Shown here one piece after another: positions 53,970 to 63,467 of a stretch of DNA of 64,000 nucleotides. Below the pieces are notes generated by a model. The model did no database searches. It was given only the letters and a program-made list of their open reading frames with translations, and was not told the origin of the DNA. The position numbers were made by a program, and so were the translations under genes. Origin of the DNA: Candidatus Deferrimicrobiaceae bacterium (lineage in GTDB: Bacteria > Desulfobacterota > Deferrimicrobia > Deferrimicrobiales > Deferrimicrobiaceae); the NCBI GenBank assembly GCA_963792415.1, contig CAWBVY010000009.1, positions 76,629 through 140,628 on the forward strand, read 5' to 3'. Numbering within the stretch: position 1 is the stretch's first letter; the number at the start of each line of letters is the position of its first letter.

Positions 53970-54046
53970 TGGCGCGCCCTGAGGGATTCGAACCCCCGGC
54001 CGCTTGATCCGAAGTCAAGCGCTCTATCCAGCTGAGCTAAGGGCGC
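53970..54046 (-). tRNA. tRNA-Arg(UCG)
   Basis: Acceptor GCGCCCT/AGGGCGC-G-CCA; anticodon arm CTTGA-CTTCGGA-TCAAG; GTTCGAATC. Confidence 0.96.
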
Positions 54047-54062
54047 GTCCGAGAGGAAAGTC

Positions 54063-54091
54063 ATCGTACTATAAAGGAAATCCAGCGTCAA
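54063..54091 (-). promoter_or_regulatory. Sigma70 promoter of tRNA-Arg
   Basis: TTGACG-17-TACGAT. Confidence 0.85.
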
Positions 54092-54132
54092 CACCACCCT
54101 CGGAAATCCCCCTTTTCGGCCCGAAAAAGCGA

Positions 54133-54160
54133 GTTGTTTGCACGGGGTTTGCGGTCCGTG
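54133..54160. repeat. 28-bp motif, copy 1 of 4
   Basis: gttgtttgcacggggtttgcggtccgtg. Confidence 0.95.
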
Positions 54161-54337
54161 TGGTTCCCTGAAAAGCATTAACACATCTCAGACCGGTGAA
54201 AGGGGGGCAGGCCAATAGCAGTATTCACATATTCGGATTATACTATCGATCAATCACCGTGGATCCCGGAAGGGAGCGAGGGCACGCTTTTTGTGAGAGG
54301 AGGTCCAACCATGATGATGAACAGGAAAGGAGAAAAC

Positions 54338-55318
54338 ATGAAGAAGCTCATCATCGGCCTGGTCGCGGTGGCTTTGGTCTTCGGGGCAGCGGGCATCGCA
54401 GGGGCCGCCTCGCAGGACAAGTACGGGCTTCCGGAGCCCTACCTGGCATGGGAGAAGGACTATCTCAAGGAATTTCCGGAGCTTCAAGGCCTCATGGACA
54501 TCATGATCGGCACAACGGTCGCGCAGCTCAAGGACCCCGCGGCCGACATTCTTCACAACCGGGTCTGCTCCGCACTGGCCTACGAGATGTCAAAGAAGCT
54601 GTCCGAGTCGAATCGGAAGCTGGCGGTGGTTACGGACATCCTTCACAACATCAGCAAGGAGGACAAGGCGGCCGTCCTTACGAACCCCGAAATGCTCGCG
54701 AAAGCCACCGGGATGGTCTCGAAGCTGAAGAAGGCGGGATCCTTCAAGAATTCTCCCGGGTTCTGGGGTGATGAGGCCGTGTTGAAAAACCCGAAGGTCG
54801 GCGGCAGCCTCGGCCTCATCCACCACATCACGGGCGCTCTAACGGCCGGTGAGATCGCGGCCAGGGAAAAGTTCTCAGCGAAAGACGTCGACATGATCCA
54901 GGTGGCCGTCCTGGAGCATTCGACCGGATACTGGTATTTCCGGGATTCCGTGGACGCTGCGGCGGGCCGGAAGGGCGCCTGGCAGGTCATCTATCCGGAG
55001 CCGGAAAACGAGATCGCCAAGATCGCCCACGATGCCGACCTGATCTCCCAGTTCGTCTACGAGTCCGTGGTGCCCGACGGTAGCAAGTGGAGGGTGCTCG
55101 CGCAGAAGCGCTGGAAGGCGAAGGACACGAAGGAGGAGGGCCACATCGTCTACTACGTGTTCCTCCGTCTATTCGAGGAGGCCAAGACGGAGAAAGGGAA
55201 GGAACTGGCGAAGGAGCAATGGGAGAAGATCCGGCCCGAACTGGTGAAACTGATGGGCCTCAAGCCCGGCGATGATCCCATCAAGGTACTGGGGGTACCG
55301 AAAATCTTCCAGTCATAG
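54338..55318 (+). CDS. Exported HD-superfamily-like protein
   Basis: Signal peptide; H...ILHNISK...HH..GA...EH...HDAD. Confidence 0.75.
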   Translation: MKKLIIGLVAVALVFGAAGIAGAASQDKYGLPEPYLAWEKDYLKEFPELQGLMDIMIGTTVAQLKDPAADILHNRVCSALAYEMSKKLSESNRKLAVVTDILHNISKEDKAAVLTNPEMLAKATGMVSKLKKAGSFKNSPGFWGDEAVLKNPKVGGSLGLIHHITGALTAGEIAAREKFSAKDVDMIQVAVLEHSTGYWYFRDSVDAAAGRKGAWQVIYPEPENEIAKIAHDADLISQFVYESVVPDGSKWRVLAQKRWKAKDTKEEGHIVYYVFLRLFEEAKTEKGKELAKEQWEKIRPELVKLMGLKPGDDPIKVLGVPKIFQS

Positions 55319-55424
55319 GAGGTGAGAAGTTCGGTGCAGACTGATCGATTGAGAACCGCCCGGTGCGATCGATCTTCGAGGGAATGAAAAGTAACCGGGT
55401 GGAGGAAGCTTGTCGGCCCCGATG

Positions 55425-55451
55425 GAAGCAACCACCGGGGCCTTATTTTTT
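55425..55451 (+). terminator. Rho-independent terminator
   Basis: ggcccc(55416)...ggggcc followed by ttatttttt. Confidence 0.6.
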
Positions 55452-55517
55452 CATTCGGGCCGCTCTTCTTAAAAAAGAGAACCCGGCGTAAAGCCCGATT
55501 CCCTTTAAGGATTATGA

Positions 55518-55574
55518 TGGTGTCGAAGGGAGGACTCGAACCCCACGGGTTTCCCTGCCACACGTTCAAGATGC
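55518..55574 (-). pseudogene. tRNA-Leu-like 3' fragment
   Basis: Variable arm GGGAAACCC, GGTTCGAGTCC, ends CTTCGACACCA. Confidence 0.7.
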
Positions 55575-55589
55575 AGGAGTTTGACGATG

Positions 55590-60750: not shown

Positions 60751-61065
60751 ATGCGCTTGCTCATGAACGTGACCATGCCTCACGAGCCGTTCAACACCGG
60801 CGTCAGGGACGGGTCCGTCGGCGAGAAACTGGAACGCATCCTGAAAGAGACCAGACCCGAGGCAGTCTATTTCACGGAGCACAATGGGCACCGAGGGGCG
60901 ATCCTGGTCCACGATCTCGCCGATCCGTCGAAGATCCCCTCGGTTTCCGAGCCGTGGTTCCTGGCCTTCAACGCCGACGTCGAGTTCCGGATCGCCATGA
61001 CCCCCGAAGACCTCAAAAAAGCAGGACTCGGGGATGTCGGGAAGAAGTGGCCGAAGGCCGCTTGA
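60751..61065 (+). CDS. Small ferredoxin-like-fold hypothetical protein (GYD/DUF3303-like)
   Basis: PEAVYFTE.NG.RG, EPWFL.FNA.VE, MTPEDL. Confidence 0.75.
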   Translation: MRLLMNVTMPHEPFNTGVRDGSVGEKLERILKETRPEAVYFTEHNGHRGAILVHDLADPSKIPSVSEPWFLAFNADVEFRIAMTPEDLKKAGLGDVGKKWPKAA

Positions 61066-61205
61066 GAATCCCGAAAAACACGGACTCATCCCGGGACGCA
61101 TCCTGGATAGTTTGAACGAATCCAAAGTGGATGAGGAAGTGGGAGCGACCAACAGTCAATCTTTTTAACGTGTTGCATTCGGATGCAACATAAAAGGAGG
61201 ATCCC

Positions 61206-61475
61206 ATGTTTATTGTCGTCGAGCACACGATTACCAATCCGGATGTTTTCTTTGGACTCGCCCCAAGAGTCTCCGAAGCGCCTCCGGGAATCAATGCGCT
61301 CCAGTTTCTCCCGAGTACGGGAAAGGATCGGGCGGTCTGTCTTTGGGAAGCGAAGTCGGTAGACGCTTTGAAGGGTTTCCTGGAGCCCTTTACCGGTCAG
61401 AGCAGCCGCAACACCTACTACGCGGTGGACAGCGCAATGGCGATGGGTCTTCCGATCAAGAAAGCCGCGGCGTAG
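61206..61475 (+). CDS. Small hypothetical protein
   Basis: [21 protein letters not shown]. Confidence 0.75.
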
Positions 61476-61519
61476 CCGGAAAAACTCCTGAGCCGGCGTG
61501 GCACGCGCCGGCTCAGTTT

Positions 61520-62155
61520 TTCCCCATTAATGTCCTGGGCGAAGTTGGAAAAGGACACAAGATCGCCTTCAACATTCTCAATATAGGACGGTTCAAGCTC
61601 GGGGCGGTGGTCACCGGGGCCGCCAAGGTCACATTCGCGGAAGGGGCGAGGTACGCGAACGCCAGGAGGCAGTTCGGTGTCCCAATCGCCACCTTTGGCG
61701 CGATCCGGGAAAAGATCGCCGACGGCGTGGCCGACATCTTCCGCGCAGAGTCGATCGTATACCGTGTCGCAGGGCTGCTGGACCGTCGGCTCGCATCGAT
61801 CGAAAAGGGAACGCTGAACTACTACGGAGCCTACCAAAAGGAGATCGAAGAATACGCGGTCGAATGCGCCATTGCCAAGGTCTATTGCAGCGAGGCCTTT
61901 GGCCGGATCGCAGACGAGGCCCTCCAGATCCATGGGGGATACGGCTATATCCAGGAGTACCCCGTGGAGCGACACTACCGGGATGCGAGGATCAACCGGA
62001 TCTTCGAGGGGACGAACGAAATCAATCGGCTCCTCATCTCCGGCACCCTCCTAAAGCGGGCGATGAAGGGTGAGATCGATCTTATGCCCGGGGTGATGAA
62101 AGCCGCCGAAATCCTCAAGGCGGGGAATCCCGCCTCTCCTGAAGGGACCCACTGA
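61520..62155 (+). pseudogene. Acyl-CoA dehydrogenase internal/C-terminal fragment
   Basis: [30 protein letters not shown]; no N-terminal domains. Confidence 0.85.
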
Positions 62156-62371
62156 CAAATCTATTCCTGATGGCGATACGAAAGACGGAATCTGCAACCC
62201 GATCGATCGCCCAAAAATTAGGCAGTCTGTTGGAAGGTCCACCGCGATAGGAACCGCACGGAATATCCACAGGGGAATCAACAGACGATCCACAGGAGGA
62301 TGTGGAAATCGAAGCATGATCAGGAGAGGATCTTCTATTAGGTGATACGGATGATCATTACGGCTTCGAAA

Positions 62372-62399
62372 GTTGTTTGCACGGGGGTTTGCGGTCCGT
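62372..62399. repeat. 28-bp motif, copy 3 (one extra G)
   Basis: gttgtttgcacgggggtttgcggtccgt. Confidence 0.9.
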
Positions 62400-62492
62400 T
62401 TGGCTTACCCTTTCAATAACCGAGGTACGTCCGGACGATATTCCCACCAAAATACGGGTGGACCGATCATTGGGGGCTGGTCACCGGCCCGG

Positions 62493-63149
62493 TCATTTCG
62501 GGGCATTTCTTTTCTCGTAGTGAGGCCTGAAATTATCGGTTACCGCAAAGGCGAGTTCTTCGAGGTAACGATCGTATTGATCTTCGGGATTGTTCATGCT
62601 GAACGATATGTCTTTGGAGTTGGAGTTGATGCCTGCCACTTTCCAATGTCCTTGACGCGAATTGCTCCAGATCGTCGACCCGCTCACGGTGTCCCAATGT
62701 TTTGAAACCATCGAGATCTTCACAACCGCAGACGCGCGGAGGGAAGAAAGGCCGGTTCCGATACGAACCTCGGGTTTCATGTCTGAAATTTCAAAGCTCC
62801 CCGTAAAGATCGAACTCACCCCGTATTTTTCTTCAATCGCTTTAAAGGCCTCGATGTCCAATGAGTTCCGGCCAAGCCTTTTTAACAATTGGCCTTCCGG
62901 CCCCAATTCAAGAAAGCGTAGCTGAGGCTGGGCGTTCTGGATAAAACCCATGAATTTTTGGGTGGCGATTTGATTGAAGTCCTCCCTGGAGTTGGAGGCA
63001 AACTCCACGATGCCAATGGTTTTATACGGCTGCAAATCGATTTTCGGAGGAATTTCCACAACGACCGTGTGAGCGCATCCAACGGCCGATAAACCGACCA
63101 CAAGGGATCCCAGAAATATTTTGAATGTACGCAGGTTGGAAATTCCCAT
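62493..63149 (-). CDS. Hypothetical lipoprotein (CsgG/TolB-N-like alpha/beta)
   Basis: Lipobox AVGC; IGIVEF; low GC. Confidence 0.7.
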   Translation of the reverse strand: MGISNLRTFKIFLGSLVVGLSAVGCAHTVVVEIPPKIDLQPYKTIGIVEFASNSREDFNQIATQKFMGFIQNAQPQLRFLELGPEGQLLKRLGRNSLDIEAFKAIEEKYGVSSIFTGSFEISDMKPEVRIGTGLSSLRASAVVKISMVSKHWDTVSGSTIWSNSRQGHWKVAGINSNSKDISFSMNNPEDQYDRYLEELAFAVTDNFRPHYEKRNAPK

Positions 63150-63365
63150 CGAGGCTTCCTTTTGCCCGAAAGATAACGTCGACCGCCCTCCTTATGATTT
63201 ATCGGCAATAAATTCAAAGAAATTCAATTAATTCGGACATTACGAACGGCAATTCCGGGGGTATGAGTTCAGGTGCGGCTCTTTACCGTCCGCGGCTGCG
63301 GGCGCTCTGGGAAGACTATAGCAGCCGGCCCTGTCGACATACCTCTTCCCTCCCCGAAAAAGGTG

Positions 63366-63393
63366 GTTGTTTGCACGGGGTTTGCGGTCCGTG
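63366..63393. repeat. 28-bp motif, copy 4
   Basis: Exact copy, preceded by ccccgaaaaagg as in copy 2. Confidence 0.95.
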
Positions 63394-63467
63394 CGGGTTT
63401 CCCTCTGAAATCCGATAGAGACTTCGGGGTGGTTCCCTCGCCGTGTCAAGCGCTTCGAGGCGCAGCC

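Follow-up and report, generated by a model that had tools for sequence, protein, structure and literature searches.

The DNA studied here (hereafter the window) is the last 64,000 nucleotides (nt) of contig C9 (140628 bases) of the Candidatus Deferrimicrobiaceae genome G000, and it carries an array of gene cassettes on the promoter side of a tRNA-Arg(UCG) gene. Comparison of empty and occupied sites among relatives shows that incoming DNA supplied the promoter and the 5' part of this tRNA, replacing the resident ones, and that it did so repeatedly. This reverse polarity had been proposed in a preliminary description of the window; the empty and occupied sites, together with a fossil at the far end of the array, now support it beyond anatomy. 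The window ends with the contig, so that the array is cut off there.

Polarity of the tRNA-Arg(UCG) array

The intact tRNA and two copies of its 5' half were confirmed with ARAGORN, Rfam and repeat alignments, and Rfam gave nothing in the window besides tRNA-Arg. One copy matches the 5' part of the tRNA over 47 nt with 100% identity (59585-59631) and belongs to a longer repeat of 156 nt (54008-54163 and 59580-59735; 85% identity ungapped, 87% gapped). Identity reaches tRNA position 38, where the anticodon loop ends, and is then lost, exactly at the edge given in the preliminary description. The promoter TTGACG-17-TACGAT, said there to be intact in this copy, was indeed called on the minus strand at both 54091-54063 and 59663-59635. 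The other copy (55590-55636) also covers 47 nt, with 98% identity, and breaks after position 33/34.

The far end of the array is marked by a sigma-54 activator gene (C4:30367-31728 in G000), an ortholog of which is present in 22 of the 28 genus genomes (G000 and 27 congeners). Using a pattern that locates the gene end, the sequence past the activator stop codon could be read at 16 of these 22 loci. Two of the 16 (G024 and contig C6 of G008) are empty sites: ~41 nt, including a TAGAAT -10 box, separate the stop codon from an intact tRNA-Arg(UCG), and the boundary motif described below is absent. The ancestral promoter seen in these two genomes is unlike the motif-type promoter of the window. 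The 3' half of the window tRNA and its downstream flank are resident, this flank (53969 and below) being homologous to the one downstream of the tRNA at the empty site of G024. In occupied genomes the arrays consist of 3-18 same-oriented repeats over 11-42 kb between the activator gene and tRNA-Arg(UCG); the two genes were found on one contig at distances of 42 kb (G012), 22 kb (G021) and 11 kb (G017). Directly past the activator gene of G000 lies a degenerate tRNA 5' half reaching to about position 40 (C4:30281-30326), followed by the short start of a region called ARM (see below) and by the motif. The array is thus situated between the ancestral promoter with its 5' half and a tRNA under a different, motif-type promoter, which is the reverse of the usual polarity. 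Far-end remnants in other genomes are of unequal length: that of G016 stops in the anticodon loop, G019 retains tRNA positions 1-26 and G015 positions 1-8, and the rest break in or before the promoter.

The start of contig C5 of G008 is identical to the empty allele over 102 nt (activator end, ancestral promoter and tRNA to position 40) and then turns into ARM. The G008 sample seems to hold both empty and occupied forms, and the far side of C5 is rearranged. C5 was rejected as a clean single-cassette allele of the empty site on C6 because its flank after the tRNA differs and leads to a tRNA-Arg(ACG) 3' fragment. A joint in public-run contigs that runs backwards on the window (59737>54006) is the far-end copy on C4, at 90% likeness, and not a circle.

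On the other side of the tRNA, the segment 53920-53969 just 3' of the gene contains GGGGGATTCGAAC, the reverse complement of a T-arm-like sequence, and the same holds for G024 and for both G008 contigs. In G024, 22 nt of the tRNA 3' end are additionally repeated at a distance of 186 nt on the downstream side.

A census of tRNA fragments outside tRNA genes in G000 gave 23 entries, namely 16 fragments of 3' type from many different tRNAs, six of 5' type, all from tRNA-Arg(UCG/ACG), and one tRNA-Lys fragment cut by a contig end. Since all six 5'-type fragments come from tRNA-Arg(UCG/ACG) and the 16 others are 3'-type, reverse polarity is specific to that tRNA pair. The census contained no 3' fragment downstream of the intact tRNA-Arg(UCG) on C9. 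Further modules containing a 5' half of tRNA-Arg were located at C9:3546, C9:7273, C9:12223 (ACG type) and C4:30281 (UCG type). The intact tRNA-Arg(ACG) at C7:4750 likewise carries this motif and promoter.

Alignment across relatives, which had been suggested as a check, shows that cassette content and order vary between species. The 306-nt module matches 22 of 24 same-genus genomes, mostly many times, and motif hits are oriented with the tRNA (18/18 in G002, 15/16 in G012 and 12/12 in G021) at a spacing of 0.4-13 kb. Cassettes recur at different places among genomes, and two that are common to G002 and G021 stand in opposite order. The cargo of relatives includes GGDEF proteins, proteases, rubrerythrin, OmpA, cytochromes, a nitroreductase and a RelB/YafQ pair. 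Motif and ARM-type units are also found in a second genus, and the single-contig genome G066 has arrays.

The boundary motif and the ARM region

The upstream repeat first reported as a 28-bp motif is real; it measures 27 nt (GTTGTTTGCACGGGGTTTGCGGTCCGT) and has four copies in the window, one of them with an indel. Exact copies stand at 54133, 59705 and 63366, with 0.00 expected from 100 shuffles. The boundary repeat CCGCACGGACYGCAAACCCCGYGCAAACAAC is built of two direct TGCAAAC heptamers (TGCAAAC-N4-TGCAAAC) with a period of 11 nt and a stem of only 6 bp, and the core of the motif spans about 21-32 nt. A motif profile search returned about 25 copies in G000. In the arrays of relatives the motif typically lies 10-100 nt past the stop codon of a gene oriented with the array. 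The motif is the general cassette boundary, a role undervalued in the preliminary description. When G011 is compared with G012, homology is lost immediately past CAAACAAC and returns with the following TGCAAAC, so that the differing unit is bounded by motifs.

Exact motif copies were found in 58 loci of species-representative genomes, nearly all of which are titled Candidatus Deferrimicrobium, Deferrimicrobiaceae or 'Deltaproteobacteria bacterium'. The motif is present in 18/18 sampled genomes of g1, in 12/13 of g21 and in 40/61 across the family; a reversed control pattern had no match in the same genome samples, and a search of viral contigs gave no exact copy. Heptamer pairs, considered as possible arm sites beside integrase genes, number 18 in G000. 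Three are loose GCAGAC matches and one lies beside an integrase fragment (C9:3101-3472), the rest belonging to modules; none was found at the five integrase loci L151-L155.

The broken tRNA at 59580 is followed by the ARM region of about 130 nt, which recurs after three other 5' halves in G000 and also in relatives. ARM units are 78-87% identical even in the second genus and have no coding signal. The unit formed by promoter, 5' half and ARM was rejected as a conserved RNA, since RNAalifold detected no conserved fold in seven such units (structure conservation index 0.41, z -1.27 versus column shuffles) and Rfam remained silent beyond the tRNA. Conservation of ARM across genera without an RNA fold points to sites acting at the DNA level. 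ARM-type units of at most 80% identity to those of the window were also seen on four small contigs (C245, C255, C177 and C305) of G031, a genome placed in another family by the genome table; this reflects either interfamily transfer or mis-binned contigs.

Junctions at the motif fall into several types. About 10 stop directly after CAAACAAC, and seven run on into the 3' half of tRNA-Leu(GAG) with its terminator. This motif-Leu junction is the normal junction of an ordinary 3'-side array at tRNA-Leu(GAG), and in relatives the unit of tRNA-Leu 3' fragment and terminator likewise follows the motif. In G021 the tRNA-Leu(GAG) array includes tRNA-Arg 5' and 3' fragments, indicating that the arrays exchange material.

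Origin of the arrays

The 28 genus genomes contain 25 5' fragments of tRNA-Arg(NCG), 17 of which have their last position at 36-44. Among 3' fragments, 11 start at positions 29-36 and eight of these exactly at position 33, so that both classes overlap on the anticodon loop. We give about an even chance to the reading that the array is built by an enzyme acting in trans, through site-specific recombination both in the anticodon loop region and at the motif. The ancestral locus would have comprised the sigma-54 activator gene, a short promoter and tRNA-Arg(UCG). Incoming units would end in a module made of motif, small hairpin, sigma-70 promoter, leader and tRNA positions 1 to ~38, and recombination in or beside the anticodon loop would join this module to the resident 3' half. 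The tRNA would stay whole and be transcribed from the incoming promoter, the earlier promoter and 5' half being displaced upstream as a fossil. Repeated rounds would have left the fossils at 55590 and 59580, and the oldest beside the activator gene on another contig. The intact promoter of the 59580 fossil (59635-59663) could read into the ARM, or antisense into TerC and FtsH, and yield the tRNA-half transcript suggested in the preliminary description. Cassette exchange at the motif itself may be a second type of event. The motif pair and the ARM repeats would be the putative protein-binding sites of an attachment site, and the enzyme would be a tyrosine-type integrase acting in trans or since lost.

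We infer this site-specific chemistry, the role of the motif and the action in trans, and favour them for four reasons: breakpoints are concentrated on the anticodon loop; numerous junctions show an abrupt edge immediately past the motif; module and ARM are laid out like an attachment site, with short repeats flanking a core; and ARM has kept its identity across genera without coding or RNA-fold signal.

Several observations weigh against this reading. Breakpoints are not uniform: four of the 25 5' fragments end at positions 31-34 and four at 26-28, and many junctions fade within the promoter or stop right past the motif. The crossover is accordingly not always at the anticodon loop, the place suggested in the preliminary description, and many junctions retain the motif only. 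Since ARM-type junctions are mutually homologous and may share a single origin, they do not count as separate crossovers. At the far end, almost every genome has a different junction, anywhere between the stop codon and tRNA position 40. The cargo genes, unlike integron cassettes, occupy both strands and possess their own terminators. At the activator locus of G009 (L088), a complete tRNA-Arg(ACG) with motif-type promoter is followed by the same flank as the tRNA-Arg(UCG) of the sister genome G008, which looks like homologous exchange between tRNA-Arg paralogs; the anticodon identity at this locus has been swapped. Finally, no PF00589 match lies inside the located arrays of G000, window included, or of its 27 congeners (the recombinase scan of G000 covering the genome except C6:792001-864000, 72 kb), and G066 has only two PF00589 matches, both scoring like XerC/XerD. 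The preliminary statement that no integrase is in view thus holds for the window, which stops at the contig end, and an integron-like hotspot without integrase fits as a description (3-18 same-oriented repeats, shuffled cassettes and no PF00589 in 28 genomes).

In the search for an enzyme, Pfam was run over the arrays of two relatives and over those of G000 on C9, C7 and C4. Among 94 array open reading frames (ORFs) scanned, the only recombinase-like gene was one IS3 transposase, an IS3-family pair (HTH_Tnp_1 and rve) within the G002 array (locus L050:2150-3453). The only degraded integrase adjoining tRNA-Arg(UCG) is a frameshifted classical one on the 3' side of this tRNA in G010; its relatives were rejected as the enzyme source, since the four found (37-46% identity) include two that adjoin tRNA-Leu and none that adjoins tRNA-Arg. 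An integrase C-terminal tail of roughly 95 amino acids (aa) at C9:3101-3472, adjoining tRNA-Arg(UCU), led no further: across the 61 family genomes searched, no relative exceeded 44% identity. A phage-type integrase (340 aa; C6:355756-356772) is encoded together with an ORF6N protein and a ribbon-helix-helix protein (C6:354364-356772) on the 5' side of a tRNA-Met. In many genus genomes it keeps this position, ~10 kb from the XerD-like gene. This integrase has no support as the trans-acting enzyme, being present in 11/18 sampled genomes of g1 and 1/13 of g21, versus 18/18 and 12/13 for the motif. Against the integron-integrase model, the conserved phage-type integrase of the genus scored 38 bits (cut-off 265), the best value in the genome region tested.

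Ordinary homologous recombination is the main alternative and a serious one, to which we assign a lower probability. The module (45-160 nt) would serve as portable homology without a dedicated recombinase, looped-out circles or DNA of relatives re-entering at any module and the first cargo joints being illegitimate. The lack of a recombinase gene in any located array, with only two Xer-like ones in G066, agrees with this explanation, as do the heterogeneous breakpoints, the whole-tRNA replacement with preserved flank in G009, the material exchanged among the tRNA-Arg(UCG), tRNA-Arg(ACG) and tRNA-Leu(GAG) arrays, and the left ends of the same cassette, eroded to differing lengths between genomes. 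It accounts poorly for a motif core that is short for RecA and kept in many copies across two genera, for the sharp edges after CAAACAAC at no fewer than 10 motif-only and at seven Leu-type junctions, for the clustering of 5' ends at 36-44 and of 3' starts at 33, and for the conserved ARM with its tandem repeats and no RNA fold.

It is improbable that the repeated sequence is regulatory DNA, a 'mobile promoter' in which the motif is a binding site or upstream element, the array an ordinary hypervariable island and the 5' halves products of local duplication. Tandem response-regulator binding sites with an 11-nt period are known, and the heptamer pair with its own 11-nt period resembles them; several motifs also stand ahead of a stretch resembling a promoter and of a gene with the same orientation, such as those at 63366 (218-aa ORF) and C4:30241 (sulfatase). 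Many other copies have no promoter or precede a tRNA-Leu 3' fragment or antisense genes, and the ancestral tRNA promoter has no motif. The empty/occupied pair and the strict orientation over 42 kb would also be left unexplained.

It appears very improbable that XerC/XerD use the motif like a dif site, in the manner of integrative mobile elements exploiting Xer (IMEX) and of pdif modules. Modular arrays are formed by pdif modules, which the present arrays resemble, and the only tyrosine recombinases of G066 score like XerC/XerD. The half-sites of the motif are direct and not inverted, and all copies have one orientation. Xer-dependent modules are bounded by dif-like 11-6-11 sites. A candidate chromosomal dif site was located at about C6:67530-67557 (TGTATA centre, TTATGTCAAAT arm), and it is unlike the motif.

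An artefact of assembly or binning in a mixed population is scarcely credible as the source of the arrays: all genomes are metagenome-assembled, contigs break in the repeats (C9 end, C7 start, G016) and G008 holds both empty and occupied alleles, but the architecture is found inside contigs of 278-873 kb, in a single-contig genome and, among 24 genomes of the same genus, in 22. Other public runs (all Logan contigs) span the HD-Leu-Arg junction and three junctions at the motif, differing by 0-1 nt, joints that may stem from related species in the same samples; a contig from run X6 covers 54773-55619 with one difference. Of the two ways in which the preliminary description could have failed, an identical gene order is not what relatives show, since their cassettes vary, and copies created by assembly are contradicted by the long and bridging contigs.

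Related systems, cargo and other islands

In the canonical arrangement, an integrated element shares the 3' half with the tRNA, which keeps its own promoter (PMC10865867, PMC8371274). Tyrosine integrases of tRNA-targeting elements cut in the anticodon loop, according to PMC8371274. The same source describes archaeal pTN3-like elements as using the 5' half, with expression from element DNA, and states that such use is seldom met in bacteria. This precedent makes 5'-half polarity rare and not new. The pTN3-like elements of Thermococcales resemble the array in the use of the tRNA 5' half and in a restored tRNA under an incoming promoter, a polarity that, judged from the sequences, appears to apply here as well. 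They are single elements with their own integrase gene, whose promoter drives the tRNA; the array has no integrase, either of SSV or pTN3 type, next to its attachment site, relies on the module's own sigma-70 promoter, stacks up to 18 units and lies in a bacterial chromosome. A further departure from the 3'-half rule is the tRNA-dependent lysogeny of actinobacteriophages, in which a complete tRNA brought by the phage takes the place of the destroyed host tRNA (PMC10865867), whereas here the resident 3' half and flank are reused.

Classical tRNA islands and prophage tandems share with the array, as read here, recombination in or near the anticodon loop, the restored tRNA and the repeated fragments that mark successive insertions, and the 16 3' fragments of G000 are of this kind. 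In such islands the integrase usually lies beside the tRNA and the 3' half is shared; here 5' parts (tRNA positions 1 to 34-39) are found, on the promoter side, and the array has neither a 3' repeat at its far end with the resident promoter kept nor an integrase inside.

Chromosomal integrons and clusters of attC sites lacking integron-integrases (CALIN) are similar in their long arrays of small unrelated cassettes, in a short repeat of one orientation and in a content that varies between close relatives. An attC site is an imperfect palindrome of 57-141 nt with RYYYAAC/GTTRRRY ends. The arrays differ in having no IntI, a direct-repeat motif of about 21-32 nt, cassettes that occur on either strand and bring promoters and terminators of their own, and a tRNA anchor. 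No intI was found beside the array in G000 or in the located arrays of the 27 congeners; the motif, judged against the consensus boxes, is not an attC; and cassettes are not promoterless units of one orientation, one common cassette having its own promoter region and terminator. We regard as doubtful the idea of a gene-capture platform of the Deferrimicrobiaceae, a 'tRNA integron', in which the tRNA-Arg promoter and 5' half would correspond to attI and the motif to attC. Self-expressed cassettes would then be inserted and shuffled by a recombinase whose gene lies elsewhere or whose type is not recognised. If so, every insertion would renew the tRNA promoter and, since the incoming DNA includes positions 34-36, could switch the anticodon between UCG and ACG.

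The open-access literature searched contains no description of tRNA 5'-side arrays, of the integrase-less array form or of this feature in Deferrimicrobium. A family-wide stacked array with no integrase in cis and with a second boundary motif common to the 3'-side array of another tRNA was accordingly not found described in that literature. Here a family of sediment bacteria systematically breaks the near-universal 3'-half rule and stacks accessory genes over as much as 42 kb ahead of a tRNA, on its promoter side. These genes encode, among others, redox enzymes, cytochromes, proteases, signalling proteins and a toxin-antitoxin pair. Should a dedicated enzyme exist, this would be a second, independent solution to the integron problem and a compact site pair that restores an essential gene upon insertion. 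Should homologous recombination suffice, a short portable repeat would turn a tRNA promoter into a capture hotspot. Either way, the arrays are the most variable part of these uncultured genomes and explain the recurrent contig breaks in assemblies.

All features of the array in the window are listed in Table 1. Among the cargo labels of the preliminary description, FtsH, TerC, RraA and the acyl-CoA dehydrogenase fragment were recovered with Pfam; the HD-like protein stayed below the cut-off, the zf-TFIIB pseudogene had no match and the supposed lipoprotein belongs to no Pfam family. The tRNA-Leu fragment, overlooked at first, was assigned by alignment to tRNA-Leu(gag) and three fragments on C1, and by blast. 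The small cassette recurs at different places of the array in no fewer than three further genomes, and its 89-aa ORF matches DUF3303 with E=0.023 only.

Table 1. Features of the tRNA-Arg(UCG) array within the window (positions in the window)
Feature	Position	Strand	Remarks
Intact tRNA-Arg(UCG)	53970..54046	-	Proximal end of the array; sole tRNA by ARAGORN (tcg) and Rfam
Sigma-70-type promoter TTGACG-17-TACGAT of the intact tRNA	54063..54091	-	Called promoter; motif type
Boundary module	54103..54163	-	Motif (54133-54159; minus strand CACGGACCGCAAACCCCGTGCAAACAAC) and small hairpin resembling the tRNA-Leu anticodon arm
Cargo ORF, 341 aa	54293..55318	+	Antisense to the array; HD match E=0.11, below cut-off
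tRNA-Leu(GAG)-like 3' fragment	55456..55575	-	Anticodon stem to CCA, with downstream terminator; left end of the HD cassette
Fossil tRNA-Arg 5' part	55590..55645	-	With leader and degenerate -10; fused to motif tail and Leu fragment
FtsH	55799-57658	+	Pfam; antisense to the array
TerC	58021-59130	+	Pfam; antisense to the array
ARM region after broken tRNA	59451..59579	-	Two GACAGGAAGTG repeats and a diverged second motif (GCAAAC-type, 59452-59472)
Fossil module	59580..59735	-	Motif (59705-59731), hairpin, intact promoter (59635-59663), leader, tRNA positions 1-38
RraA-like protein	59779..60477	-	Pfam; array direction
Small cassette	61133..61528	+	89-aa ORF 61206-61475; bidirectional terminator 61488-61516
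Acyl-CoA dehydrogenase C-terminal fragment	61343..62155	+	Pfam; remnant
Motif copy	62371..62398	-	One extra base; without promoter
ORF, 218 aa	62493..63149	-	Array direction; no family by Pfam
Exact motif copy	63366..63392	-	With hairpin and decayed promoter; upstream of the 218-aa ORF
Short-chain dehydrogenase	63468..64000	-	Pfam; truncated by the contig end

Outside the window, G000 carries a second array, at tRNA-Arg(ACG), which occupies C9:1-16000 and C7:1-8000, C7 starting within an ARM. Its cargo comprises DUF1214/DUF1254 proteins, an acyl-CoA dehydrogenase, a lipocalin, a TetR regulator, an O-methyltransferase and an adenylate cyclase. Downstream of tRNA-Leu(GAG), C1:300400-305000 holds an ordinary 3'-side array with at least four Leu 3' fragments spaced by 0.9-1.6 kb, one of which is preceded by a degenerate motif and hairpin. 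The 20-kb contigs C2 and C3 have a lower G+C content (0.60), and each starts with a tRNA-Thr(CGT) that is also present at C1:187859; probably they represent strain variants or alternative islands at a single tRNA.

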